Below are positions 37,606 through 55,452 of a stretch of DNA of 64,000 bases, piece by piece; within the stretch, counting starts at the first letter, position 1, and each line of letters opens with the position of its first letter. The notes beneath the pieces were generated by a model. It was given only the letters and a program-made list of their open reading frames with translations, did not search any database and had not been told where the DNA came from. The stretch is taken from assembly GCA_963774265.1 (NCBI GenBank), contig CAVZDU010000005.1:1-64000 (forward strand), read 5' to 3'. The position numbers were made by a program, and so were the translations under genes. Source of the stretch: an uncultured Chloroflexia bacterium (GTDB lineage: Bacteria; Chloroflexota; Anaerolineae; CG2-30-64-16).

Positions 37606-39591
37606 TCAGCGCGCGAGTTTGAGTGACGGATCGCCCAACAGATTGAACGTCAGCAGGATGTCGCGCACGCCACCGGCCTGATCGGGCAGCGCCATTTGCG
37701 CGTCGAGCACGATATCGCCCAACGAGCGCGTGCCTGGCCTGGCCAGCGCATCGGCCAGCCCCAGCGCCAACAGCCGCTGATCAGTCAGCACCGCCGCACT
37801 GCTCGGCACCAGCGCTGCGACCGCGCCTCCGCCCGCGCGGCGTAGCAGCACCTCGCTCAACGAGACCGTGGTGGGGTGCTCGAAGAAGCCGCTCAGGCAG
37901 GTCACCGTGAAGACGATCGGCAGGCGCCCGGAATTGTCCAGTTTCGCCGCATCCTCTACGTCGAACACCTTTTCCTTGGCCCACAGCGTCACGCTGCCGT
38001 GTCCGAAGTAGCCGATCAATCCGGCGCCGTCCCGAAAGCTGGCCCCCAAAGCTGCGCGGGCGTTCGCGCCGTCGCCCTCGATGGTCACCTGCTGCGAGGT
38101 GTAGCCCAGGCGGTTGGCGAACGCGGCCGCTTCCTCGGCGAAGCCCGGCTCATCGTTGTCCGCGACCAGCAACACGTCCGATCGCCACCTCAGGTCGCCG
38201 GCCTGGCGCTCGTAGGCCAGCGTCTTCTGCACCATAATCGCCAACTGCTCGGCGGTCTGCGCCGGGAAGCGCCCCACGGCGAAAGCGGGTCTTGTTGTCG
38301 GCCCGTCGTCGGGCAGCGCGTACCACACATCCGAGCCGGTCCAGCCCGAGAAGGTCGTGTAGACGCTCCGGGTCGGCACGAGATCGCTTTCAGTCCCCTT
38401 CAGCCAGCCCATCGGATCGTAGCTCGCGTCGCCGGCCAACAACAGGTAGGCTGGGGCCGGCGCAGTCCACTTCTGCCGGGCGTGCCGCATGAGCGCCTGG
38501 AGGGCTGCGGGATCGATGCGCCCGTGGCTGAACGCGTCGTAGACCTGCTCGACATCGAGCACCGCGACGCGCAGCCCCTGCGCCGTGCGCGCTGCAACCA
38601 ATGGCTTGAGGGTATCGCGGAACTGGGGCACGGTGATGATGACGAGGTCCGCGCCGCCGGGCCAGTCGGGCAGCGGATTCTCTGTGGTGGCCGCGATGGC
38701 GACTGGGGTCAGCACCGCGGCCGCATTGGCGGCCGCATCATCCGGCGCGGGCGTGCGGGGGTAGGCTATTTCCACCCACCGCAGATGCAGCGAGTCCGCG
38801 GCCGCGCCGGTGTCGCCCGGTGCGTCGATGACCAATTGATTCTCGTCCGGCTTCAGCACGCCGGCCGGGATGAGGGCGGTGACAAGGTGCGGACGCGCGC
38901 CATCCCACGCAGCATCAGAAATAAGCGTTCCGTTGAGGCTGATGAGGAGCCGGTGATCCGGGTCAACAGGCGCAGACGACTTGCTGATGACGAAGACCCG
39001 CAGCTCGCCGGGTCCCGCAGTCATGCCCGGGGCAGCGAGTGTGATTTTCGCTTCGGCCGGGGCGAAGAGCGTCTGCCAGTACCAGCGATCGGAGATCGCT
39101 TCGGCCTGGCCATCGTAAGCCAGGTCTCGTTCAAGACGGACGGTGGCAGTGACGACGCCGGTCGTTGAAACCGGCGTTGGCGTCGCTTGCGGGCGAGGCG
39201 CGGTCTCTGCTGCGCCCTGGGTTGCCCCTGTGACGCGACGCAGCCAGTAGACGTTGCGGGGCGTATAGGAATCGGAAGAAAGCCGCAGGCCATGAAAACG
39301 CACGGCAGCGTCACGGCCCTGGCCCACCAACTCGAACGCGATGGGCTGCCCTCCGACCGATAGCGCGAGCTGATCGGCGGTGGCTGACGCCAGGTCGAAT
39401 CCAGCCCTGGCCAGCTCCGCGGCCGTCACCTGGTAAATGCCATCTTCCTCCAGGCTGATCTTGACCGCGGACACGCTCTCTGCCGGCGGCGCAACGCACC
39501 CCGAGAGGAGGGCGACAAGCGCCAGGCCAAGGAACGCAAGGCCGATCGGGATCGAGCGGGAGTAAGTTCGGACATTGACCATAGAACTCAA
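37606..39591 (-). CDS. C25 (gingipain/PorU-like) cysteine peptidase, lipoprotein
   Basis: LSGC lipobox; EDGIYQVT...L; YDAFSHG, YLLLAGDASYD, VGRFP, YFGHGS (His), TCLSGFF (Cys), LLGDP. Confidence 0.88.
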   Translation of the reverse strand: MSSMVNVRTYSRSIPIGLAFLGLALVALLSGCVAPPAESVSAVKISLEEDGIYQVTAAELARAGFDLASATADQLALSVGGQPIAFELVGQGRDAAVRFHGLRLSSDSYTPRNVYWLRRVTGATQGAAETAPRPQATPTPVSTTGVVTATVRLERDLAYDGQAEAISDRWYWQTLFAPAEAKITLAAPGMTAGPGELRVFVISKSSAPVDPDHRLLISLNGTLISDAAWDGARPHLVTALIPAGVLKPDENQLVIDAPGDTGAAADSLHLRWVEIAYPRTPAPDDAAANAAAVLTPVAIAATTENPLPDWPGGADLVIITVPQFRDTLKPLVAARTAQGLRVAVLDVEQVYDAFSHGRIDPAALQALMRHARQKWTAPAPAYLLLAGDASYDPMGWLKGTESDLVPTRSVYTTFSGWTGSDVWYALPDDGPTTRPAFAVGRFPAQTAEQLAIMVQKTLAYERQAGDLRWRSDVLLVADNDEPGFAEEAAAFANRLGYTSQQVTIEGDGANARAALGASFRDGAGLIGYFGHGSVTLWAKEKVFDVEDAAKLDNSGRLPIVFTVTCLSGFFEHPTTVSLSEVLLRRAGGGAVAALVPSSAAVLTDQRLLALGLADALARPGTRSLGDIVLDAQMALPDQAGGVRDILLTFNLLGDPSLKLAR

Positions 39592-40532
39592 GGTTGTCGG
39601 GAACGCATATACAGCAGCGCCGCAGCCAACAGCCCGGCCAGCCCGATGGCGCTGCCGCCGATCACCCAGGCAAGTGCTGTGTTCCTTCCACTCTGCGCCG
39701 CTGCCTGCGAGGCTGCGTCCGGCGACGGTGTGGCGCTCGGGCCCGAGGCCTCGAAGATGCTTGGCGTGCTTTCGCGTGGCGGCCGCGGCGTCGCGGTTTC
39801 CAGGCCTGCAGGCTGGACCTGGGGCGTTGGGGTCAGCGCCGGCAGTTGAGTGGGCGCCGGCTCAATTGGAGCGGGAACGACGCTGGCCGGCGCTTGTGGG
39901 GCTGTGCCGGTGGGCGTCTTCACCGACGCAGCCGGCAGGGACGTTGCCGTTCGCCGCACGACGGGGGGCGCGGTAGACTGAACGCCTGGAAGCGGCGTGC
40001 CGGATGGAACGGCCGGGGTGTTTGTGAACTGCCGTGTTGCCGTCGGCGGCGGCGTGTCAGTCAGAGGGATGCCAGTTATCGTAGGGCGCGAGGTCGCGGT
40101 CGGATTCCTGGTGACCGTGGCCGTGGCGGTAGATGTTGAGGTGTCGGCGGGCAGATCAATCCCGGCCCAGATTGGCCCGAATTGTGACGTGCCCGCGTTT
40201 GACAGTTCCTCCAGGAGGTAGAAGTACCTGACCCCACTCGTCACTGTCAGATCAGTGTACTCGTAGATTGCGCCGGTGACGACGTTGCCTTTTGGACCTT
40301 GAGCATCGATGGGCGTCCCCCAACTGGATGGCGAAGCGATCTGAGCGCGAAAGAGCCGAAAGCCAGAGGTATCCAGTTCGGTTGCAGTCTCCCACACGAC
40401 CAGGATGGAATTGCCTTGGTGCGCGCTTGCCTCAAAGCGCACCAGGGTTACGGCGGCCAGAACGGTGTGAACAGGCACGACCAGACACAACACAGCCATG
40501 ATCATGACGGCCAGTAGATGTTTACGGTGCAT
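39588..40532 (-). CDS. Secreted protein: AVTLVRFEA + 'WETATELDTSGFRLFR' Ig/FN3-like domain, PT-rich linker, C-terminal TM
   Basis: Signal peptide MHRKHLLAVMIMAVLCLVVPVHTVLA; TM followed by RSRQP. Confidence 0.8.
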   Translation of the reverse strand: MHRKHLLAVMIMAVLCLVVPVHTVLAAVTLVRFEASAHQGNSILVVWETATELDTSGFRLFRAQIASPSSWGTPIDAQGPKGNVVTGAIYEYTDLTVTSGVRYFYLLEELSNAGTSQFGPIWAGIDLPADTSTSTATATVTRNPTATSRPTITGIPLTDTPPPTATRQFTNTPAVPSGTPLPGVQSTAPPVVRRTATSLPAASVKTPTGTAPQAPASVVPAPIEPAPTQLPALTPTPQVQPAGLETATPRPPRESTPSIFEASGPSATPSPDAASQAAAQSGRNTALAWVIGGSAIGLAGLLAAALLYMRSRQP

Positions 40533-40561
40533 GTCGATGTTTCTACTCCCGGGCGCGAACA

Positions 40562-42964
40562 TCACCGCGTGACCACCGGCAAGAACAGTCTCGTTGGCGA
40601 GGCCGGCAACCGCATGGCGGGATCGCCAAACAAGGTCATCGTGTCGATCAGGTAGTGCTTGCCATACACTTGGCTGAACTGCTGCTTTGCGATGGTCAAC
40701 GCAACACCAACCTCTCGTATGTTGTCTTTGAACATAACGTCGAGAAGGATCTTCCGGAATGCCAGCTGGTGCGACGTTGTGCCCAAGCCGGACGGCGAGA
40801 CGGCGGCAATGGAGCCGCCCCCGGCGTGGCGCTGCATCAGTTCCGCGATGCTGAACCTCGCAGGGTCCGGATGTGCGAAGTAGCCATCGAGACAGTTGAA
40901 GGTCATGATCAGGGGCAGCTTCTCGCCATTTACGAGGGCAGGGATGTGGGAGCTGCGCCAGATGCTTTCGTGAGTCCATCGCTCCGGCGCGCCGTGTCCG
41001 GTGAATTGAACCATGAAGGCGCCGGCCTGGAGCGCGTCCGCGAGGGTCGAGTGGGTTGCCGCGATCTGCTCGGGAGTGGCAGGTGTGACGGCATCGCCGG
41101 GCAGGTACGCACGCACCACCTGGAGATCCGTTGGGGTATAGCCGGCGATGATCTCGTCGGACACTGCGGGAAAGTCGCCGGAAGAGTCCGGATTGTCGGC
41201 CACGAATAGCGCGCGGCGCTGCCAGTCCGCAATGCGCAGGTTTTCGTCGTAAGAAACGATCTTGTCCACCACGGTTCGCGCCTCGGCCAGTGTATTCACG
41301 GCGAGCCGGCCCACCGCAATCTCAGGCACCCTGTCGTCATCGATATCACCGAACTGGGCATCTGCCGGCACCTCGCCCTGCCATGGGTCCACCCACGCTA
41401 AGAAGGGCGGAATGTGCTGGGGCTGCAGGGGGTAGACTGCTTGATTGTTACCCTTGAAGTTCCAATGGCCGTCGCCGACGAGGGTCAAGTAAGCCGGCGC
41501 AGGCGACTGCCAATTGGCCACGGCCCATTTCATCATCACCTGCACGGCCTTTGGATGGAAGATGCCGTCGTTAAACTCATCGTACGCGTCCTGGATATCG
41601 ACCACCAGGGCACGGCGGTCATGAGCGCGATGCCACCCTGCCAGTTGCTCTGCCGCGACCCTTAGTTCAGCCGAAGTAACGATAACTGCGTCGGCGCCTC
41701 CCGCGGGATTGCGTAACCCGGTGGGGGGCCGTATCCGGATCGAAGCTGGCGCCTCAGCGGTGGTTGCGGTTTGTATCCAATACCGGCTGCCGACGGTGGT
41801 ATTGACGCGGAACCGGACGGTCACATCGGGACCTGATGCGGGTGGAGCGGATAGACGTACAGGATGCTTTGTGTCGGTGATATCCCAAATGAGCGTCTCA
41901 GGGCTTGACCAGCCTGATGCGGCGTACTCCTGGATTCCTCCCTCCTCCGATCGGAAGTCTAGCCGGTCCCCCCACGCGCGGAAAAGGCGACGATAATCCA
42001 GCTCCCAATAGTTCACATAAATGTCGTCATTGGGGACGCCGGGAAGCAGCATGGCGCTCACTGTCAGCGTGTTGGTTCCATGTGTCAGACCTCCTGCGGG
42101 AACAGGAGCGTTGAACACCTTTCGTACGGAGAGGCCATCCCAATTCTCGTCGAGGATTGTCGCACCGTTTAGCGTCGCCACCGTGCGATGGTCGGGGTTC
42201 AGATTCCACACGTATGCGTTGCTGATTTCCTCCAGGCGCAGCGTGGCGGCCGCGGCCGCCGGATATGGCACCACGTAGGGCAAATCGGCGGTGGCCGTCT
42301 GAGCCAGGATCCCGTTCCAGATTTGATCGGGTTCGGATCGCCTCTCGACGGCCGGTGCTGCGGCCCCTGCAGATAATGCCACCGGGCTCAAGCGGCTCCA
42401 AAACCACGTGTCCTGTGTATCCAAGCCCAGGGTGTATAATGTCCACCAAACATTCGACTCCTCGGCTCGTAACGTGGTCGCAAAATCCGTAGGCGGGGTG
42501 CGATCGTATTGAGGTGTGGCATCCCGCACCTCGATGCGCGGCCCCGTGGCGCCCCCGATGTCCAGCCAATACACGCGTTCATCCGTGTACTTCTGGTCCA
42601 TTTCTGGCCCGCGGAACTTCTCGCCGAAGAAATAGAGCGCATCACCCCCGTCGAATATCCCGTTGCCATCATCCGTCACATGGATTGCGACAGGTTGCCC
42701 CAGGCTCGACAGGGCGAAAGTGTTTGGGTTGGCGCCCGCGAGATTTGGATCGGCGTTCGCCAGATCGGCCGGCGTGACCTTTGTGATGCCGTCTTTGACG
42801 ACGCCAATGCGGACGCGGACAGGCCCTGCGGCCTCGGTACGCCGCGCGGTTGCGGGCGGCAGCATGGCAGTCAGGGCCAGAAGCAGGGCCAGGACAAGGG
42901 ATGCGGACCGGGAAAAGCGAACGGCCGGCCGCACCTTGGAGTGCATGATCGGTGTTAGTTGCAT
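40562..42964 (-). CDS. C25 (gingipain/PorU-like) cysteine peptidase with LFLPVVTR tail
   Basis: VKDGITKVT..DL; YDEFNDG, LVGDG, VGRL, FTGHG (His), NCLDGYF (Cys), LFGDP. Confidence 0.9.
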   Translation of the reverse strand: MQLTPIMHSKVRPAVRFSRSASLVLALLLALTAMLPPATARRTEAAGPVRVRIGVVKDGITKVTPADLANADPNLAGANPNTFALSSLGQPVAIHVTDDGNGIFDGGDALYFFGEKFRGPEMDQKYTDERVYWLDIGGATGPRIEVRDATPQYDRTPPTDFATTLRAEESNVWWTLYTLGLDTQDTWFWSRLSPVALSAGAAAPAVERRSEPDQIWNGILAQTATADLPYVVPYPAAAAATLRLEEISNAYVWNLNPDHRTVATLNGATILDENWDGLSVRKVFNAPVPAGGLTHGTNTLTVSAMLLPGVPNDDIYVNYWELDYRRLFRAWGDRLDFRSEEGGIQEYAASGWSSPETLIWDITDTKHPVRLSAPPASGPDVTVRFRVNTTVGSRYWIQTATTAEAPASIRIRPPTGLRNPAGGADAVIVTSAELRVAAEQLAGWHRAHDRRALVVDIQDAYDEFNDGIFHPKAVQVMMKWAVANWQSPAPAYLTLVGDGHWNFKGNNQAVYPLQPQHIPPFLAWVDPWQGEVPADAQFGDIDDDRVPEIAVGRLAVNTLAEARTVVDKIVSYDENLRIADWQRRALFVADNPDSSGDFPAVSDEIIAGYTPTDLQVVRAYLPGDAVTPATPEQIAATHSTLADALQAGAFMVQFTGHGAPERWTHESIWRSSHIPALVNGEKLPLIMTFNCLDGYFAHPDPARFSIAELMQRHAGGGSIAAVSPSGLGTTSHQLAFRKILLDVMFKDNIREVGVALTIAKQQFSQVYGKHYLIDTMTLFGDPAMRLPASPTRLFLPVVTR

Positions 42965-43062
42965 CGTGAAACCTTCGAAGGAAAAATACGCCAGACGCAC
43001 GCCCGGATCAAGGCGAGGCGTCTGGCGCAACAGTGCGAACGTAGGGCTGGATCGTTAGCACA

Positions 43063-45419: not shown

Positions 45420-45535
45420 CGTCGCGCTCGATCATACCCTTGGTTGGCCGAACGGACAAAGTCCGGTCTGCCGCGCGATCCACACGCGGGGGCTGCATCG
45501 CGACCTACACGTGGGGGCCGTGGCGCAATCCACAC

Positions 45536-45809
45536 GTAGGGGCGAGTGTGGCGCCGGCGAGAAGACCGGCATCCAGGCGTCCCACATCGGACCACATACA
45601 TCCGCTACCACAAACCTTTCTACGCCGCACTCGCCCTGGTCGGTCGCCGCGAACAGTGCATGGACGGCGTGCGCGATACGTGGTTCGATGCGGCACGCGC
45701 CGCCAACAAGGGCGAGTGCGGCGCACAGATGTTTGTCGTGGCGCATGTTTGCGATCCCATCCACCACGCGCCGTATCGTGGGTCGCGCCGGCGCCACACT
45801 CGCCCCTAC
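45536..45809. repeat. REPIN/BIME-like unit A bounded by inverted 24-bp GTAG REPs
   Basis: GTAGGGGCGAGTGTGGCGCCGGCG at 45536 and its exact reverse complement at 45786-45809. Confidence 0.85.
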
Positions 45810-45813
45810 GCAA

Positions 45814-46338
45814 TTACGCACCGGGGATTTGGGGGTGGTGTTCGTCGTGCGGCCAGTTGAGGGGGTTGTCGTGGATGTATTTGCGAATCGCGTCCAGATT
45901 GGCGTCGGAGCGGATGATGCGTTCGTAGTAGTTTCTCTGCCAGACCTGGCGGCCGGTCACGCCTCGGATCCGGTTTATGCGTTGGGTCGTGGTTGATTTG
46001 TATGCGCCAATGATGGCGCCCAGGGAGCCGGTCGGCGCGCCGGCGGGAGGCGTGGACGGAAGGGATGGGGCGTGAACGGGGTTGAGCCTGGCTTGGTTGA
46101 TGATCAGGATGCCGTGCAAGTGATTGGGCATCACCACCCACGCATCGAGGGACACGTGCGAGAAGCGCTTTGGTAGTCGCAGCCAGAAGGATTCCGCGAT
46201 CCCCTGCAGGATGGCATCATCAAACAGGCATTCTCGCCCCTGTGTTACGATCGTCACGAAATAGGCGCCGCTCTGCGCATAATCATATCCTGGCAGCCGG
46301 ATCGAATGACGATCGTGTTTATCAGGATCGTACCTCAT
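45814..46338 (-). mobile_element. REP-associated tyrosine transposase (RAYT, Y1_Tnp)
   Basis: SIRLPGYDYAQSGAYFVTI, VVMPNHLHGI (HUH), WQRNYYERIIR...YIHDNP..W. Confidence 0.92.
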
Positions 46339-46396
46339 TTCTGGCGCTCCTCCGGCAGGACCACAGCATCACATTTGGGGGCGGCGAGAACCACGC

Positions 46397-46730
46397 GTAG
46401 GGGCGAGTGTGGCGCCGGCGAGAAGGCCAACATCCCGGAGCCCTACATCGGACCACGCACATTCTCTACCACGAACCTTTTTGCGCCGCACGCGCCCTGG
46501 TCCGGTCACCGCGAACGATGCATCGGCGGCGTGCGCGATGCCTGGTTCGATGCGACATGCGTCTCGCCCTTGTGGCGTGACGTTCGGCGTGTGCGATGCG
46601 TGGTTCCATTCGACGCGCGCCGCAACGAGAGGGCGAGTGCAGCGTACGGACGTTCGCCGTCACACATGTGCGTGATCCCATGCACGGCGCGCCGCCGACA
46701 GAATCGCGCCGGCGCCACACTCGCCCCTAC
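46397..46730. repeat. REPIN/BIME-like unit B bounded by the same inverted REPs
   Basis: GTAGGGGCGAGTGTGGCGCCGGCG at 46397 and reverse complement at 46707-46730; interior homologous to unit A. Confidence 0.85.
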
Positions 46731-46836
46731 ATGATGACGCGGCGCGGACGGTGTGCGTGGATGACGGAACAAAAAACGCACGGTGGCTGCCTTGATGGCA
46801 ACGCACCGTGCACCGGTAATCAGGAGATGTTATACG

Positions 46837-47548
46837 TCAGGCCGTGCGGCGGCGGCTGATGGCCAGGCCGGCCACGACGAGCAACGCCACGGCGCCGAGG
46901 CCGGCATATAGCGGCCAGGTGGGGACGGGATCGCCGGCGGCGAAGGTGGAGAGTGTGACAGAGTTGGCATCGTACATGCTGAGATCGGCACTGCTGAACG
47001 TCGCATTCGCTCCGCCAAATGGGCAGCCCGTCATCATGACGAACAATGTCCCGCCCGAGCTGGCAGGTTTGGCATTCAAATAGTTGATCAAGCCCGGAGC
47101 ATTAGTACTGCTATCAAATACAAGTTGGCTACCGGAAATCGACGCGGTTCCAAGAGTCCCATTTGAAGCGATCGGGGGGAAAGTTGTACCACCATTCAAG
47201 CTGGCCTTGGCCCAATTCTCACCAGAATCGGCGATTCCATACAGCGTAAACGACACCCCCGCTCCAGGATCAACTCCTGCCAGAGCGAGTGTTAATTTGG
47301 TAGGCTTTGGGGTGCCGCTGATTGACCCGTTCGACATGCTCCATTGCATGTAGACCGCCGTCTTGGGGTTGCATGCAGAAAAAGAACCTGTCGCCGTCGC
47401 GCTCAGCACGTCGGGATAGGGAGTGGAGTCACCAGAGGCTGCAGTTGCAGCCTGATCAGGGCCACCAGAATTGAGCTGAGCCAGCACGTGTCCCCGCGGA
47501 GAGAACCAAGAGACTTATGATGGCGAAAAGAAGAATTCGTTTGTACAT
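46837..47548 (-). CDS. Secreted protein with a C-terminal VTLSTFAA-linker-TM-RRR anchor, frameshift near the N-terminus
   Basis: AAGGAG RBS, MYKRILLFA...; ends NSVTLSTFAAGDPVPTWPLYAGLGAVALLVVAGLAISRRRTA. Confidence 0.75.
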
Positions 47549-47589: not shown

Positions 47590-48306
47590 CTAGGGCCAGG
47601 AAGTGTTGGCTTTTAAACAGACCATGTAAGGATACCCGGGCTGTACTGCAAAATCCGTTCCATGCGGGATGACGTTCGGCAGCCAGTAGTCCGTAAAATC
47701 CTGGTCGGCGGCCTGCCACTGTAGCACTTGGTCCACCACAGAGGGCCCACCCATCGCAGTAACCAGATCCGATGCGTGACTGATACCAGCGTTCCATTGG
47801 TCCAGTGGAATGATGATGTTGTTGTAGGCACAATTCGGACTCGCGCCGACCAAATTATTGTACTTTACATCTCCAACCGGAGGAACGTCGCCAACAATCG
47901 AGAATACGGATGGTGCAGTCGAATCAAGCCGGATCCAGTATACGCCTCCTACCTCAAGCGAGAAGTTAGCTCCATGAGGAATAGTATTGGGTAAGTAGTA
48001 ATCGGTGAAGTCCTGAGCAGCAGCATTCCAATGCAGGACCTGATCCACTGTCTTGGGCTGTCCAACTGGCGCCTTGTTGAGGTAATCCACCAGCGCGACA
48101 GCATTCGGAATGGAACCTGTGGCATCCAGGGGAAGGGCAACAACGTTATATCTATACGTTACATCCGGCGCGTCCGGCGCAGCCGCCGCGGACACAACCG
48201 GCGCGGCCGCCAGGGGCGCACCCGCGTTGGGCAGCGCCAACACGGCCAGTGCGCCCAGCCCAAGGAGCAGGGCGACGGCGAGGACTGTGGTCAAAACTCG
48301 TTTCAT
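47590..48306 (-). CDS. Secreted protein with two tandem 'YNxxxxPLD...VDQVL.W.AA.QDFTDY.LPN.IPHG..F...G..Y' repeats
   Basis: AAGGAGG RBS, signal peptide, clear internal duplication. Confidence 0.8.
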   Translation of the reverse strand: MKRVLTTVLAVALLLGLGALAVLALPNAGAPLAAAPVVSAAAAPDAPDVTYRYNVVALPLDATGSIPNAVALVDYLNKAPVGQPKTVDQVLHWNAAAQDFTDYYLPNTIPHGANFSLEVGGVYWIRLDSTAPSVFSIVGDVPPVGDVKYNNLVGASPNCAYNNIIIPLDQWNAGISHASDLVTAMGGPSVVDQVLQWQAADQDFTDYWLPNVIPHGTDFAVQPGYPYMVCLKANTSWP

Positions 48307-48571: not shown

Positions 48572-48603
48572 ATAGGGCTGCACAATTGAGGTGCAGCCCT
48601 TAA
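48572..48603. terminator. Hairpin terminator downstream of the peptide gene
   Basis: AGGGCTGCAC-aattgag-GTGCAGCCCT. Confidence 0.65.
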
Positions 48604-48721: not shown

Positions 48722-48850
48722 CTACTTGTTGGCGCCCGTCAGATCAAGCGGATCCTCGATGCCAAGGCGAGTACCCGCCCGGACTTCCAGCACTGACTCG
48801 TAGACCACCGCGGGCTCCTCGTATGGCTTGCGCTCCAGTTTCTGCTCCAT
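48722..48850 (-). CDS. Putative RiPP precursor peptide, 42 aa: MEQKLERKPYEEPAVVYESVLEVRAGTRLGIEDPLDLTGANK
   Basis: AGGAGG RBS; RKPYEEPAV leader of the YxxP type recognised by RREs; immediately downstream of a PqqD gene; absent from the ORF track. Confidence 0.8.
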   Translation of the reverse strand: MEQKLERKPYEEPAVVYESVLEVRAGTRLGIEDPLDLTGANK

Positions 48851-48883
48851 AAATTCCTCCTAAAACTGATTGTGACACTACAA

Positions 48884-49168
48884 CTACAAAAGCGGTTCGT
48901 CGAGGCTCAGCAGCCCTCGTCCGGCCAGGTCACGGCAGAAAGCCAGGGCATCCGCCTCTGCCTTGTCCAGGCTGACCTCGTACTCGACGGCGATCACCCG
49001 GGCCATGCCGGTCACCGTGTGTTGGCCATCGGCCAGTTCCCACAGCCTGGCGCCGACTCCGTTCAACACGACAACTTTGCCCTGCACCGGATGAACCAGG
49101 ACCGCCTCACCGTCGAGCGTGCGGCTGGCAACGCCCGATACACGGCGGGGATGGTCGCTCAACACCAT
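48884..49168 (-). CDS. PqqD family RiPP recognition element (RRE)
   Basis: RTLDGEAVLV...VLNGVGARLWELADG..TV..MA..I..EYEV...A..D...F..DL..RGLL. Confidence 0.9.
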   Translation of the reverse strand: MVLSDHPRRVSGVASRTLDGEAVLVHPVQGKVVVLNGVGARLWELADGQHTVTGMARVIAVEYEVSLDKAEADALAFCRDLAGRGLLSLDEPLL

Positions 49169-49172
49169 GCCT

Positions 49173-50030
49173 CTACCCATCTCGACGGTTCGTTCCGGCG
49201 TTGATGACATCCCAAAACGAGTCGTCTTTGCGGAAGTGCAACCGCTCTACACCTACAGTTACGACAATGTCCCGGCATCGGTCGAGCAGGCCGGGCAACA
49301 GGGCTGGCTGACTGTTGATAATCGGGCAATTGGCCGTCAGCTCTGCTGTTGCCGCCCCGGCGCTCATCGGCGAAACAAAGACGTCCGGGTCCTGAGCTAG
49401 CTTGTAAATCGCGCGAATCGAACCGTTGTCAAGTTGCCCGTCGTGGTCCCCGGTCTCCAGGTTCCAAAAGGGCGTGCCGTATGCCCACCAGCCTTGAGCC
49501 TCTCGACGTAAGAGGATCAAGTCGTCCCCTAGCGCTGTCGCTCGCCGGCTTGCTCTTGAAAGCGAAACAACGGTTGACTTGCCGCTGCCGCTCTGTCCGA
49601 TGAACAGATAGATGCCTGCGCCTGCTTTGAGGGCCGCACAGTGAACCAACAGGCCGCCGGCATGATAGGCGAACAGCGCCAACGCGACACGCAGGAAATA
49701 CTCGATTTCACGCGTCAAAGCATCGGAGCGCACGCGCAACGATGCACGTGCTTCGAATGGGGCAATCATACCACAGAAATTGCTGCCGTCAAGTAGGAAT
49801 TTGTCCCCACTCGTCCTTAAGATGGCGTCCAGGAGACTGGCGCTCGCCTCGGTGCTCGCCTCAGCGCCCGCCTCAGCGGCGATCTCAACGATCAGGTCTG
49901 CCGCCTGGCCCTCATCCGGGCTGCAAAAAGGCGCATAGCGCGGCGCGATGGCTGCGCCAAGCGCCGGCGGATGAAGTTCCAGCCTGAGGCGCCAGCCGGC
50001 CAAATTCAAATACATCGTGTGGTGGTCCAT
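49173..50030 (-). CDS. HPr kinase-related P-loop protein (ScmC-like)
   Basis: GLLVHCAAL, LFIGQSGSGKST (Walker A), LGDDLILL, AYGTPFW. Confidence 0.82.
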   Translation of the reverse strand: MDHHTMYLNLAGWRLRLELHPPALGAAIAPRYAPFCSPDEGQAADLIVEIAAEAGAEASTEASASLLDAILRTSGDKFLLDGSNFCGMIAPFEARASLRVRSDALTREIEYFLRVALALFAYHAGGLLVHCAALKAGAGIYLFIGQSGSGKSTVVSLSRASRRATALGDDLILLRREAQGWWAYGTPFWNLETGDHDGQLDNGSIRAIYKLAQDPDVFVSPMSAGAATAELTANCPIINSQPALLPGLLDRCRDIVVTVGVERLHFRKDDSFWDVINAGTNRRDG

Positions 50031-50048
50031 CGCATCGCGCAAACGCGT

Positions 50049-50512
50049 TCAGCCGGTATGGGCGCGCGTCTTCTGCAGCAGCCGGCCACCGCGCCACCAG
50101 ACCACGAGCACGAGCAGCGCAAGTCCCCCCAGCACCAGGCCGTGGCGCCAGTCCAGCCCGCCGGCGCGCACGCTGATGGGGCCGAATTTGTTGATCGCGC
50201 CGTTGCGCTCGACCTCCTGCAATTCGTAATAGTAAGTCACACCCGCCTGGGCCGTGCGGTCGACGTAGCTGTACTCTCCGCCGGTCATCGGATCTGCTGA
50301 CGGCGGTATCAGCGCATCATTGATCTTGGCCTCGAACGGCCCATCGGGCGAGAGGCCGCGGTAGAGGTTGAAGCCGGCCGTGTTCATCTCGGTTTCGGTC
50401 TTCCAGGTGACGCGCACCGGCGCACTGCAGCCCCCGAGCACCAGGACGAAGATCAGCACGGCCAGTAGGGTGGAGGGTGAGCGGTGGGTGGCGAATGACC
50501 TATGGACACTCA
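50049..50512 (-). CDS. Lipoprotein-like protein with 'WKTETEMNTAGFNLYR' Ig/FN3-like domain and C-terminal TM
   Basis: LGGC lipobox; YSYVD...GVTYYYELQEVE; same domain as 39588..40532. Confidence 0.75.
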
Positions 50513-52392
50513 AAGCGAAAATCCCTTTCCAGTGTGGTTTCCTCACGGCATGCACCGGCTGCCACTGAAAGAGCGCTGCCCATGGCGCCGGCCTGTTTGC
50601 GCACGAAAAGGCGGTAGGGCCTGGCCGGCACGCCCGGCGGCAGGCGGTAATGAAGCGCCACCAGGTGCTGTTCGCCAGGTTTGAGCACGAAATCGCCCGT
50701 GAAAATGGTCGTGTCGCGCACGCCGGCCTCGGTTGCCGGGTCGTTGAGCCCTTCGATCGAAATCAACTCGCTGCCGCCCGGCGCGTAGATGCGCACGTAA
50801 CTCCAGTAGCAGCGCCGCGCCAGGTCATCATACGTCGCACCGTAGCGCGGGCGCGGTCGCAAATCGGCTCGGAACCGATGGGGGCCGTGTGGGTGTAGGT
50901 CAGCTTCAGCGAGGCCACCAGGCGGCCGTCCTGCTCCTCGACCGTGTAGTCGATCCGCTGCTGCACGAGCAGGTTTGCCTTGTTGAAGCCAACGTTGCTG
51001 TCGACCACAAGCAGAAAGTCGCTGTCATCCGGCGGACGCACACCGCCATCCCAGCGTCGCTCGGCCAGCAGCGCGGCCAGAGCCGGGTCGTCCACCGCCA
51101 CTTGCAGATTGCGCGCCTCGAGCGCGGTGTAGAGCGCCCGTGCGAGGGCCGCCATGTCTATATCCGCGCCGCTTTGCAGCGGTCCGCCTTGCACCCGGCC
51201 CAACGCGGCCTTGACCAGCTCGCCCATGAAGTCCTTGCGCTGCTCCCACCAGGCCGTGCCGCCGCCGGTCTCCGGCCCGGTTTCACTGCCCACGGGCGCC
51301 TGCCAGGCGGCTTTCATCCACTGAATGGCGTTATCGCCCGTCACGGGTTCATTGATGCCGGGCACCTGGAGAGGTCCCACTGCGCCCACGAGCAGGCGCA
51401 CCGCCTCGAGATCCAGCGCAACCGCACCATCGGTCTGTATGCCACGATCCTGCAAGTACAGCGCGCGCGCCACGTCGGCAGCTTCGGGGAAATCGGGCGA
51501 CCAGTTGCTGTCACGCAGCAGCCAGAGATCCGCGGCCATGTACTTGGCCAGCGGCGCTGGCGGCGCGGTGTGGGGCTGCTCGAAGTTATCGACCGCATAG
51601 CTGTCTGCCAGCGTCAGGTCGGTGATTTTCCCCCGGTCGAACGTCACGTGTCCGGCGCCGCTGATGAAGCCGCCTGTGCCGCGCAGCTCATCGTTATTCT
51701 GGGCGAGCACGAGGTAGGTGCGCGGGCCATCGACGCCGAGGAGCGCGGGCGATCTCCGCAAGCTCCAGCCCATCGATCGCCAGCGGCAACAGCGCGTCGA
51801 GTTTCGTGAGCTGATCCGCCAGCTTCGGTTCGGTCAGCGGCGGCAGCGCTGCGCGGAGTTCGGCTGCGCGGGCCATGCCCGCGCGTGCAGCCTGCAGTTG
51901 AGGCTGCGCGGCCTGGAGCGCGTCGACCGCCTGCGGCAGCGCGTCCAGCCCGCCGCCACCGGCCACCATTTCGCCGATCGGCGCGAGCGCGTCCACCGCG
52001 GTGCGGCCCGCCGTCGACAGCGCCCCCGCCATATCGAGCAGCTGGGGCGCGATGACGATGTCCGGGCCAAAGCGCGGCGCCCAGCCCAGGTGCGGCGCGA
52101 GGCGGAGGAACGGGCCGGCCGCGGCTTGAGCCTCTTTGAGATGGGTGTCCAGGCTGGCGATATCGGCCTGAACGTGGGACAGCGATTCGAGGGAAGGCTG
52201 CGCCATGGCGGCCTGCAGCCGATCAAGGTCGGCCAGCGCAGCGCGCGCGTAGATGCCGGCGCGCGCCGCGCGCCAGCCCAGCCATCCCACCAGCGCGAGC
52301 GTCGTGACGATGAGCGCTACGGCCAGCCATCGCCGGAGGGTTTGCTCTCGAGTTTGTTCCCCCTGTGCTTCGATCATCGAGCCATGTGTCAT
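50500..52392 (-). CDS. DUF4012 domain membrane-anchored protein, frameshifted
   Basis: PRTYLVLAQNNDELRGTGGF, RDSNWSPDFP, DSNVGFNK, YRLFVRKQAG. Confidence 0.85.
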
Positions 52393-52403: not shown

Positions 52404-53967
52404 TCATCGTATGACGGATAGGTCGTTGCGTGCAGGGCGCAGGCGCACCAGCACGCCGGTCTGTTCTTCGACGATGCCAGGCAGGGCTAATGCCAGGTCA
52501 TCGGCCCGATATACCGGTCGTTGAGCGGCCCATGCCGCTTGAAGTGATTCTTCCAGTGGCGCCTTCGATGGCAGCACACCCGGGTGCGTCTCGGCGAAGG
52601 TCGCGTCGTACCAGTCAAAGCCGTAGAGGTTCACGTTCAACACGGCCACATCATTCCGCTGGCGCAAACCATAGACGCCATACCACAGCGCAAATGTGGT
52701 CCGGTCGCCGGTTGTCAGGATGAGCGAGTCCGGCTCGGCCTCCGCCAGCGCAGCGGAGAGGAAATCACGTGCCTCACGGTCGCTTCGCAGATCATGGGCC
52801 GCCCAGTTGCGCACCAGCGACGCGGCCGGCAGTGCGGCCAGCAATACGATCACCGCAGCTGCACGCCATGCCGTCCCGCGCAGTCGTTCGATCGCCCAGT
52901 CGATGGCCAGGGCGGCCCACAATGCGACCGCGGCCCACGCCGGGATCAGATAGACGTTCGAATCGGTCGTATTATAGCCGATCCCGTAAATTGTGAAGGC
53001 CAGGAAGACGAGCAGCGTCGCGCGCCACCACGCGCGATCCCGCCACCGGAGCCGCCAGAGCCCGGCCAGCGCCAGCAGCAGTCCCCACGGTCCGCCGAAC
53101 TGCCACATGGCCTCGCTGATCCAGCCGAGTAGGCGTGCGGGTGCATCGACCAGGGGCAGCCCGAACGGCAGCCCTGCGTACAGCCGGCCTGAGACCGTCC
53201 ACAGGAAGCGCCCCGGCGTGACAGGATCGCCCCAGTTGATTGGCGGGCGACCTGCCGCGGCGAGGGGCAAGTAGCCGTACACGAACAGGCCGAGGAGGGT
53301 GCAAAGGCCCGCAACGGCCAGTATCCCGTCCGCCCCGAGGGATGCCCCGCCTATTCGCCCAAACCCAGGCCGCCAACCCGGGCAGGATCAGGGCCAGCGT
53401 CAGGTGGTTGCCCAGCCCCAGCCCAAGGACCAGGCCCGCGGCCTGCAGCGAACGGCCATCGGCGTCCTCAGCCCAGCGCCACATCAGCCATAATAGCGCC
53501 ACGGAGGCCAGCGCGTTGAGCGCATAGACCTCGGTGATGGTCGCCTGTCCCCACACGGCAGGTGCTGCAGCCCACGCGAGCGCGGCGACTGTACTGGCAA
53601 TCGCTGCCGGCCATGGGGCCTTCCCGATCTGGGTGACCTTCGAGGTCTCCGGCACCTCGATGGTGCCGGGAGCCGCGAGCATCCGCTGGGCCAGGTCAGC
53701 CAGAAGCGCGGCTGCCAACGCGGCGCAGATGGCCGAGAGCCAGGCCCCCGCGCGGGCGGGATCGCCGCCAAGGATAGCAATGGCCGCTCGGAGGGCAAGT
53801 TGATAGGTCGGATAGCCGGTGGGATGAGGTACACCGTGGGTTAGCGCTGCAGCGAGCAGATCGCCGCCGTCCGCGCCACCGTGCGCCCAGGTGAGCCCCG
53901 GCGCAAGCGTCAAGCCGTAAAGGGCGAACGCACCGAGGCCTGCAATGAGTGCGGGCCAGCGCCTCAC
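52404..53967 (-). CDS. DUF2723 / TMEM260-like GT-C membrane glycosyltransferase (putative protein O-mannosyltransferase), frameshifted
   Basis: TLAPGLTW..GGADGGDL.AA....GVPHPTGYPTY, QATITEVYAL, GNHLT, INWGDP. Confidence 0.85.
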
Positions 53968-54342: not shown

Positions 54343-55272
54343 TCAATCCTTGGGTTCGGCGATGACAATCAGGCGGTGGGTATTGTTGGTCGGCGGCCAG
54401 CAGGTCACAATGGTAAGGCGCTCGTCCTCAGTAGGCAGTATGTACTTGCCGTTGGCGATGCGTTGCGCCTGCGAGACGCCAGTGTCCTTCAACCGGTAGA
54501 ACCCGGTGATGGTGTAGGAATACTGCTTCCCCTGCGCGTCGAACAGCTCGATGGTTCGCCCGTTCAGGATATCCGACTTGTCGGTGAAGTTGTCGACCTT
54601 GACGCGTGTGTCATTGTCCCACGCCAGGCTGATCGGCTTGAACACCTGGCCGTAAATGTTGTTGTGCCCCGAGATGACCAGGTTGCCGGGCTCGCCGATG
54701 CCTGCGCTGTTAATGTGGTGTCCGGCAGCAGCCTCTGGGATCATCCATTGCGTGACCGGGCCGCTCGGTGTCTGAACGACCTTCCAACCCATGGGCACAA
54801 CTGCGGCATCTATCTTCAGATCGGGAATCGTCATCCGCACCGGGTCGATCGACGAAGTGCCGGTCGGTGGAGGTGCGGCCGCTGAAGCGCCTGCGGCTGA
54901 GCTTTTCGGCGGTGCTGCCGTGGCGCTCGGCGCGAGAGTCGCCGTGGCAGGCCGGCGGGTGGCAGTGACCTGCACCGGTTTGCGCGTGGCAGTCCGCGTG
55001 GCCTCAGCGACCACCGCTGCCTGGGCTGATTTGGTTTGGGTCGCCTTGGGGGCGGCCTGAGTGGGCGCCGGCGCGGTGGATTCCGCTGCAGGATCGGCGG
55101 CGACCGCTGCCGCATGGACGGTCGCGCCGGACGCGGTTTTCCGCAGCTGCGCACGCACCTGTGCGCTCTGAATCTCGGACCAGGCAAAGTAGCCGGCCAC
55201 CACCAAAACCAGGATCAGGCCCAGGCCCAGCAGGGCGGTGCCGAAGCTGCGACGTGCGGTGTGTTGCCCCAT
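54343..55272 (-). CDS. Sortase
   Basis: N-terminal TM; IPDLKIDAAV, GNLVISGHNN (His), LTIVTCWP (Cys), HRLIV (Arg). Confidence 0.9.
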   Translation of the reverse strand: MGQHTARRSFGTALLGLGLILVLVVAGYFAWSEIQSAQVRAQLRKTASGATVHAAAVAADPAAESTAPAPTQAAPKATQTKSAQAAVVAEATRTATRKPVQVTATRRPATATLAPSATAAPPKSSAAGASAAAPPPTGTSSIDPVRMTIPDLKIDAAVVPMGWKVVQTPSGPVTQWMIPEAAAGHHINSAGIGEPGNLVISGHNNIYGQVFKPISLAWDNDTRVKVDNFTDKSDILNGRTIELFDAQGKQYSYTITGFYRLKDTGVSQAQRIANGKYILPTEDERLTIVTCWPPTNNTHRLIVIAEPKD

Positions 55273-55452
55273 TAGTGCCTCCACTTGTCATTATAGCATG
55301 AATGCCGGGGTGCGCCGCAAGCGCGACCGAGATGCTCGCGACGCCGCCTTTCAGCGTGATCGCGAATTCCTCCGGATTTGACGATATGTTATCGATAAGT
55401 TGGGTTATGTTCTATTGCGGATGCCCTCGGAACGTGGTACGATTCCTGGTTG

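Follow-up and report, generated by a model that had tools for sequence, protein, structure and literature searches.

A conserved 42-residue peptide encoded with an HprK-like kinase and a PqqD-type protein in Anaerolineae cell-surface loci: a candidate Chloroflexota relative of the kinase module of linear polyphosphorylated peptides

The first 64,000 nucleotides of a contig from an uncultured Chloroflexia bacterium of the class Anaerolineae (assembly GCA_963774265.1, contig CAVZDU010000005.1; hereafter, the window) encode three adjacent proteins: a P-loop kinase of the HprK/PEPCK (HPr kinase/phosphoenolpyruvate carboxykinase) fold, a stand-alone PqqD-type RiPP (ribosomally synthesized peptide with post-translational modifications) recognition element (RRE) and a 42-residue precursor-like peptide. 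This trio is most likely a Chloroflexota relative of the kinase/RRE module found in the clusters of linear polyphosphorylated peptides (LPP; Popov et al., 2026; PMC13381572) and of paeninodin-type lasso peptides. We lean toward an LPP-like mechanism in which the RRE would direct the phosphorylation to Thr27, in a peptide that would serve cell-envelope biology.

Results

The trio and its signals

A first-pass annotation of the window had proposed a RiPP-like precursor accompanied by an RRE and an HprK-like kinase, encoded in the order kinase, PqqD, peptide on one strand and preceded, at the peptide, by a strong ribosome-binding site. The three minus-strand open reading frames (ORFs) and the AGGAGGA element (Table 1) confirm this arrangement, and both protein assignments hold, the RRE matching Pfam PqqD (PF05402) at 1.9e-16 and the kinase falling in the Pfam ScmC family. 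The kinase is likely to start at the ATG at 50015, which gives the 280 aa of database entry P0121, and PqqD at Met15 (49168; 94 aa), 4 nt past the kinase stop, because homologues begin at that residue. Within the peptide, a YxxP leader motif occupies residues 10-13, Ala25 is the putative -1 residue and Thr27 the putative phospho-acceptor. The hairpin that the annotation had placed after the peptide is present, roughly 120 nt past the stop codon, but it is not a canonical intrinsic terminator, since it lacks a U-tract and a terminator scan of the region returned 0 sites. A promoter-like site (48416-48388, 11/12 matches) lies ahead of the next gene, c2.

A class-wide peptide family under purifying selection

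A profile search of a protein database returned 288 proteins matching the peptide profile at E<=0.01, 120 of which were used for residue counts. None of these 120 carries a Pfam domain, and those with names are hypothetical proteins. All of them share the YxxP motif, Val or Ile at Tyr+5, Ala at Tyr+15 and a hydroxyl residue at Tyr+17 (Ser in 97, Thr in 23; Thr27 in the window peptide). Conservation is nearly as strict for Arg at Tyr+14 (118/120) and Gly at Tyr+16 (119/120), and Tyr+23 is Asp in 92 sequences and Asn in 11. Signal-peptidase sites follow a -3/-1 small-residue rule; counting from a cut after Ala25, position -3 is Val or Thr and position -1 is Ala in all 120 peptides, and judged by these residues the Ala25 register would resemble such a site. 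The first-pass annotation had placed cleavage at this very point, which also coincides with the LPP register at Tyr+15, and had nominated core Thr2 and Thr13 as phosphorylation sites. Thr2 (Thr27) indeed occupies the invariant Ser/Thr column, whereas Thr13 (Thr38) falls in a variable position that is often Phe.

The 17-residue core is free of Cys and conserved along its entire length, tail included, which is unusual among RiPP cores. Among six gap-free orthologues, the ratio of nonsynonymous to synonymous substitution rates (dN/dS) is 0.04-0.26 in 15/15 pairs, at dS values of 0.5-3.6, showing that the peptide gene is under purifying selection. The peptide profile matched no PDB chain, and a direct alignment with the leader of the LPP precursor LppA is hence not available.

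A scan of species-representative genomes identified 22 loci with the peptide. Kinase, PqqD and peptide are adjacent and in that order in 12 of them, bearing out the expectation that homologous ORFs would be found beside PqqD in relatives, and the remaining 10 are orphan peptide copies. By record title, the loci come from metagenome-assembled genomes (MAGs) of Anaerolineae, Anaerolineales, Chloroflexi or Chloroflexia, with the exception of a 3.5-kb contig binned as Planctomycetaceae. The window and its 12 sister trio loci make up the 13 window-type loci referred to below, for which absence calls apply within the flanks available. In a sample of 401 genomes of the class, the peptide profile matched 81 genomes (50/215 genera), the kinase profile (E<=1e-35) 79, and both matched 58; these are plain counts without a statistical test, the genomes being mutual relatives. 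The profile search was far more sensitive than a single-peptide query, which matched 4/401 genomes. As read from the tables for the 58 genomes with both genes, peptide and kinase lie less than 1 kb apart in 17, 1-3 kb apart in 15 and are unlinked in 26. In Ardenticatena maritima, two ABC exporters are followed by the peptide, a C25 peptidase, PqqD, a c3-like protein and a second C25 peptidase, and the kinase is on a different contig from the peptide.

Orphan copies of the peptide occur in several surroundings. The source genome has a second copy, 54 aa long and 67% identical over residues 9-38 (contig C3:52356-52520, minus strand), directly downstream of a 294-aa ice-binding-like (PF11999) anchored surface protein and with neither kinase nor RRE nearby. 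In five other loci (L031, L036, L037, L039 and L043) the 3' end of the gene for a giant SdrD_B/SpaA-repeat surface protein directly adjoins the orphan copy, after which come a SAF+SH3_3 protein and a protein of about 277 aa; in L040 and L041 the orphan copy is followed by c2. This second peptide copy, together with two further kinase paralogues and the PorU-like C25 peptidases described below, had escaped the first-pass annotation.

The kinase and the RRE

The AlphaFold2 model of the kinase (predicted local distance difference test, pLDDT, 94.3) matches ATP-dependent PEPCK at 1e-8 and the HPr kinase/phosphatase 1knx at 4e-6 in Foldseek. Sequence searches against the PDB returned P-loop matches to ABC transporters only, leaving the fold search as the informative one. 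Invariant across 44 kinase sequences are H134, a GxSGxGKxT P-loop (149-157) and the pair D173-D174. Most of 110 kinase homologues have a precomputed assignment to PF27840, which the ESM Atlas names ScmC, and the NCBIfam matches are weak ones to ScmC and HprK_rel_B, far under the curated cut-offs. In a FastTree phylogeny of 31 kinases, 11 window-type sequences form one branch (100% local support) and 8 from cassettes with a radical S-adenosylmethionine (rSAM) enzyme form another (98%).

The best NCBIfam match of the RRE is ScmD, far under its curated cut-off. When a profile of 15 RRE homologues was compared with solved RREs, it matched the lasso protein TbiB1 (5v1u) at 5e-13, LppB (9x8z_B) at 1.5e-10, PbaB1 (9x90_B) at 3e-10 and TfuB1 at 9e-8. 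An invariant N50 and a near-invariant D87, 37 residues apart, fall in the alignment on an Asn-Asp pair of the LppB chain with the same spacing. LppB N33 and D70 hold the YxxP motif of the leader (PMC13381572), and N50 and D87 may thus be the counterparts of these leader-binding residues, if the numbering offset that we infer between the LppB chain and the paper is correct. The first-pass annotation had suggested folding the complex of RRE and leader. The resulting model scored 0.53 against 0.04 for the best control, with partner pLDDT of at least 57 and at least 95% of contacts agreeing between runs. The mark it passes is reached by 58/80 solved complexes and 2/110 mismatched pairs, and a score of 0.60 or less counts as a weak pass; the model therefore lends weak support to a predicted binding of the leader by the RRE, and it shows likeness at most, because similar RRE-leader complexes have already been solved.

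Sister cassettes and paralogues

From the class sample, 15 of the 32 linked (<=3 kb) peptide-kinase cases were fetched and annotated. Eight of the 15 encode a kinase, an RRE, an rSAM/SPASM protein and then a peptide with the same leader and a Cys-containing core; the other seven lack the rSAM gene, and four of these have an NTP_transf_5 gene. Since the same leader is found on these Cys-containing cores and in window-type cassettes, one type of leader and RRE appears to serve at least two chemistries. The YxxP leader is fused to Cys-containing cores beside rSAM/SPASM genes in loci L066, L068, L070, L078-L080 and L014 (genome G052). In 14/15 sister loci the cassette has a C25 peptidase gene next to it, the remaining locus ending at a contig edge, and the C25 proteins match NF033707, the model for the type IX secretion sortase PorU, at 1e-68 to 1e-89, under its curated cut-off. 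A signal peptidase I of archaeal type (SpI) is encoded in 6/15 sister loci, in one case with 64 bits against TIGR02228 (cut-off 51.85).

All three C25 genes of the source genome have an HprK-like/PqqD cassette 2-11 kb away. For two of them this is the trio, downstream of which they lie at 5.7-11 kb; the third, frameshifted, is about 2 kb from an HprK-like/rSAM/PqqD locus on contig C1. The latter (C1:1004500-1011000) comprises an SpI-like fragment, a PqqD fragment, an rSAM/SPASM gene, an HprK-like kinase, a 199-aa protein, a C25 gene and an M23 peptidase. Frameshifts interrupt several of its genes, its kinase ORF is extended at the N-terminus by a stretch with a YxxP of its own, and an NTP_transf_5 gene lies 5 kb off. 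A third HprK-like paralogue (C7:454087-456454) is directly downstream of NTP_transf_5, with no PqqD or C25 gene seen nearby. Three NTP_transf_5 genes of the source genome lie outside the trio locus. A search for partners elsewhere in the genome, also suggested by the first-pass annotation, thus yielded the C1 rSAM locus and NTP_transf_5 genes, but no lasso B2 protein over the cut-off.

A conserved cell-surface neighbourhood

The link to cell-surface biogenesis anticipated by the first-pass annotation is borne out by conserved synteny. Upstream of the trio, the conserved order is a sortase, an LPG_synthase_TM protein, a DUF11 protein, a TMEM260-like glycosyltransferase, a DUF4012 protein and c3; the trio is followed, sometimes after a large amylase-like protein, by c2, the anchored CBM96-like c4, a C25 peptidase, a c3-like protein and a second C25 peptidase. 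The membrane protein c3 is present in 10/13 trio loci and is homologous, at 1e-7, to a 388-aa protein of Ardenticatena. The proteins at 39588-40979, 50049-50555 and 46837-47487 end in a hydrophobic segment and a basic tail resembling a sorting signal. A dedicated protein-anchoring system is suggested by the occurrence of such anchor-tailed proteins next to a sortase and two PorU-like C25 peptidases.

Table 1. Features of the trio locus and its surroundings (window coordinates).
Feature	Position	Strand	Evidence and remarks
HprK/PEPCK-fold P-loop kinase, Pfam ScmC family (PF27840)	49173..50042	-	ORF, TTG at 50042, 289 aa
Stand-alone PqqD-type RRE	48884..49210	-	108-aa ORF; Pfam PF05402
42-aa precursor-like peptide MEQKLERKPYEEPAVVYESVLEVRAGTRLGIEDPLDLTGANK	48722..48850	-	ORF, profile family, dN/dS
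Shine-Dalgarno AGGAGGA	48855..48861	-	4 nt before peptide ATG; read from sequence
GC-rich hairpin, 9-10 bp stem	about 48575..48599	-	fold; z = -3.4 for 186-nt stretch
Membrane protein c3	50049..50555	-	N-terminal transmembrane (TM) segment, WxTxTE..GF.hhR beta domain, C-terminal TM anchor
DUF4012 protein	50500..52392	-	three overlapping ORFs here; intact 611-637 aa in relatives
TMEM260-like / PMT_2 glycosyltransferase	52404..53967	-	two ORFs here
Sortase	54343..55284	-	PF04203 at 1.2e-17; conserved in 7/13 loci
Secreted two-repeat protein c2	47590..48306	-	directly downstream of peptide; near-invariant signal peptide
Surface protein c4	46837..47487	-	C-terminal TM and basic-tail anchor; homologue CBM96-like
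PorU-like Peptidase_C25, copy 1	40562..43030	-	7.8e-78; NF033707 (T9SS, type IX secretion system, sortase PorU) 1.1e-68, under curated cut-off
c3-like anchored protein between C25 genes	39588..40979	-	2e-54 to L027 homologue; ORF start over-extended
PorU-like Peptidase_C25, copy 2	37606..39591	-	6.1e-77

Two further observations concern this neighbourhood. The product of c2 consists of two tandem repeats of about 90 aa behind a signal/anchor segment that is almost invariant across genera; it has no Pfam match, and its AlphaFold2 model (pLDDT 68.7) has no Foldseek match in the PDB at E<=0.001. Between c4 and a purple-acid-phosphatase-like gene, positions 45522-46748 hold two palindromic repeats of about 300 nt (84% identical; arms 93-97% complementary) flanking a 174-aa IS200-like Y1 transposase ORF (45814-46338), an arrangement resembling repetitive extragenic palindromes and their associated tyrosine transposases (REP/RAYT).

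Discussion

In the LPP pathway, as described by Popov et al. (2026, Nat Commun; PMC13381572), the cluster consists of an HprK-like kinase (LppK), a discrete RRE (LppB), an archaeal-type SpI (LppS), a nucleoside triphosphate (NTP) transferase (LppN) and an MsbA-like pump (LppD). The LPP leader follows the motif YxxPxVLxHQxIxFETxxS and is cut after Thr-1 (Tyr+15), and LppK phosphorylates core Ser3 of LppA with up to four phosphates (PMC13381572). By analogy, the PqqD-type RRE of the window, as modelled, would bind the 42-aa peptide at the YExPAV motif of its leader and present it to the ScmC/HprK-like kinase. The kinase may then move one or more phosphates from ATP onto the invariant Ser/Thr two residues past the end of the leader, here Thr27, much as LppK acts on LppA Ser3. 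The leader would probably be cut after the invariant Ala25, in the LPP cleavage register and in keeping with the signal-peptidase -3/-1 pattern, the candidate enzymes being a C25 peptidase and some peptidase that works in trans. A conserved, Cys-free core argues for a role in housekeeping or structure over one as an antibiotic, and the role of the peptide may be tied to the surface cluster around it, with its sortase, DUF4012 protein, TMEM260-like glycosyltransferase, anchored proteins and two PorU-like C25 peptidases.

Several observations weigh against this LPP-like mechanism, the main doubts being that the locus encodes no leader peptidase, that the acceptor is a Thr, that the window peptide diverges at two prolines and that its neighbours are split by frameshifts. 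A phmmer search found an SpI-like peptidase in 0/13 window-type loci and, in the source genome, only a 17.5-bit fragment at C1; searched with one query each, the NTP-transferase and an ABC exporter resembling MsbA were likewise found in 0/13. The S3T variant of LPP stayed unphosphorylated (PMC13381572), whereas the window peptide and 23/120 members have Thr as the acceptor, and the acceptor itself is at Tyr+17 (core position 2) instead of the Tyr+18 (position 3) of LppA. The core is conserved here and highly variable in LPP. The window peptide is moreover a mild outlier, with Arg28 and Glu32 in two columns that are mostly Pro, and Arg appears in the former column in only 2/120 peptides. The DUF4012 protein and the TMEM260-like glycosyltransferase, single genes of about 610-640 aa in relatives, and genes of the C1 locus are broken in this genome, which suggests assembly indel errors or gene decay. 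At the level of distribution, the 401-genome sample includes 23 genomes with a peptide and no kinase match and 21 with a kinase and no peptide match, and a genome of the same genus (G744, 89% complete) yielded neither. The SynChlorMet models, finally, score far too low for assignment (ScmC TIGR04249, 23.9 bits against a cut-off of 125; ScmD TIGR04248 for the RRE, 43 against 100), literature searches on SynChlorMet, HprK-related kinase, HPr-rel-A and ScmC brought up only unrelated 'SCMC' papers among the matches listed, and to our knowledge the function of a ScmC-family protein has never been put to experiment.

Some of these observations invite other explanations. Full-length conservation, the orphan copies beside surface proteins without kinase or RRE, and the 23/81 peptide-positive genomes that lack a kinase match would suit a small protein that is never modified, such as a regulator, a chaperone partner or an inhibitor of the PorU-like C25 peptidases or of the kinase, to which PqqD merely binds. 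We consider this unlikely, given that a YxxP leader-like motif paired with an RRE is an architecture typical of RiPP pathways, that sister cassettes follow classic RiPP logic in placing the same leader on Cys-containing cores with rSAM/SPASM enzymes, and that the Ser/Thr by the leader end is invariant. A comparably small chance attaches to phosphorylation of Ser/Thr27 as an activation step only, the phosphate being subsequently eliminated or displaced to yield a dehydro-amino acid, a glycosyl-phosphate or a cross-link, so that the mature product would be no phosphopeptide. The site accepts both Ser and Thr, NTP_transf_5 accompanies the kinase in 4/15 sister loci and at the paralogue loci of the source genome, and phosphoglycosylation is known for pseudomycoidin (PMC8498205); against this, no lyase, suitable glycosyltransferase or NTP-transferase is encoded in any of the 13 window-type loci. 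Maturation in trans by the C1 locus, leading to a SynChlorMet-like or ranthipeptide-like product, is a very improbable variant. The source genome does hold there an rSAM/SPASM gene, an HprK-like kinase, a C25 gene, a PqqD fragment and an SpI-like fragment, and rSAM-type cassettes share the leader family; yet that locus has its own kinase, RRE and YxxP-bearing N-terminal stretch and is itself broken by frameshifts, the window core contains no Cys, rSAM genes are found in 0/13 window-type loci, and the window-type kinases branch apart from the rSAM-type ones.

The lasso-like spacing that the first-pass annotation saw between Gly1 and Asp8 of the core is undermined by the residue counts of the family. 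A lasso precursor closing a Gly26-Asp33 ring, with its B2 protease and cyclase encoded elsewhere, would account for a lasso-like leader, a B1-like RRE and the near-invariant Gly at Tyr+16 with a frequent Asp at Tyr+23, and HprK-type kinases are known to decorate paeninodin-type lasso peptides (PMC8498205). The would-be ring acid is nonetheless Asn in 11/120 peptides, two prolines fall inside the would-be ring, and where a lasso leader would have Thr at -2, the residue here is Arg or Ala, according to which cut is assumed. The lasso B2 family (PF13471) was not found over its cut-off in the source genome (84% complete; best 13.8 bits) or in any of five other trio genomes. As the first-pass annotation had observed for the window, no lasso B2, lasso cyclase or rSAM gene accompanies the trio, and none does so in the 12 sister loci either; the best Asn_synthase match of the source genome scores 24.2 bits on a 276-aa ORF, and the Asn_synthase genes of other trio genomes are unlinked to the trio. 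The lasso reading was accordingly rejected on its B2, cyclase and leader/core features, and we regard it as extremely improbable.

A more speculative extension of LPP-like phosphorylation, which we hold to be rather improbable, concerns the use of the product. The matured peptide might be no secreted natural product but a ribosomally made linker or acceptor for protein sorting by PorU-like C25 peptidases in monoderm Chloroflexota. The Gly26 N-terminus left by a cut between Ala25 and Gly26 would act as transpeptidation nucleophile for the anchor-tailed surface proteins, and the conjugate would be held on a wall glycopolymer through the neighbouring phospho-Ser/Thr. If true, the peptide would play the part that the anionic lipopolysaccharide (A-LPS) linker plays in type IX secretion, or that the Gly cross-bridge plays for sortase A.

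No biological role is known for LPP or for phosphorylated lasso peptides, and the Anaerolineae family differs from LPP in ways that bear on function, with its conserved core and its fixed context of sortase, DUF4012 protein, glycosyltransferase and PorU-like C25 peptidases. Class-wide spread, core conservation and this surface context together argue that kinase/RRE peptide modules serve cell-envelope biology and not antibiosis. The analysis offers a concrete candidate site, the Ser/Thr at Tyr+17, with putative cleavage after the Ala at Tyr+15, as well as a cultured organism, A. maritima, that has the peptide, the RRE, C25 genes and the kinase. It also ties the uncharacterised Pfam ScmC/SynChlorMet family to an identifiable precursor family.

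Among known systems, LPP clusters are the closest in several respects. Both have an HprK-like kinase, recognized here by its PEPCK/HprK fold, P-loop and Pfam ScmC assignment and compared with LppK by description; both place a discrete PqqD-type RRE next to the precursor; the YxxPxV leader of LPP is resembled by the YxxP and Val/Ile at Tyr+5 of the family; and a hydroxyl residue follows shortly after the Tyr+15 cleavage register, at core position 2 here and at position 3 in LPP. Neither locus has a macrolactam cyclase, and both reside within cell-envelope polysaccharide or surface loci, LPP clusters lying in capsule loci with a function given as unknown (PMC13381572). Sister cassettes of the same class also have archaeal-type SpI and NTP_transf_5. 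The two systems differ in phylum, LPP being described as restricted to Bacillota (PMC13381572) and the present family belonging to Chloroflexota, and in the PorU-like C25 peptidases that are recurrent neighbours only here. Paeninodin-type lasso pathways likewise rely on an HprK-superfamily kinase whose substrate is a linear precursor that bears a leader and is recognised by a B1-type RRE, and polyphosphorylation of a single Ser is documented (PMC8498205); their kinases, however, target a C-terminal Ser, whereas the window peptide ends in Lys and its locus has no B2, cyclase or lasso fold.

The SynChlorMet cassette also pairs an HprK-like protein with PqqD, and it provides the family of the kinase (PF27840) and the best NCBIfam match of the RRE (ScmD). 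The ScmC and ScmD scores are nevertheless far under the equivalog cut-offs, and the radical SAM proteins ScmE and ScmF are found in 0/13 window-type loci; we know of no precursor or chemistry for this cassette. With PorU, the C25 sortase of type IX secretion, the likeness resides in two downstream C25 proteins that match NF033707 and lie among proteins with C-terminal anchor-like tails; their bit scores are under the curated cut-off, and gene neighbourhood is what connects C25 and peptide. Literature searches on PorU, C25, RiPPs and PqqD in Chloroflexi or Anaerolineae returned nothing about such a system. One survey counts 24 'RRE' clusters in Anaerolineae MAGs (PMC11748557), and another paper (PMC12710340) mentions neither kinases nor Chloroflexi. 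The novelty claimed by the first-pass annotation is weakened by the 2026 description of LPP. With respect to the literature searched, the LPP supplement excepted, which may list relatives outside Bacillota, what is new is the phylum, the conserved core and the systematic association with PorU-like C25 peptidases.

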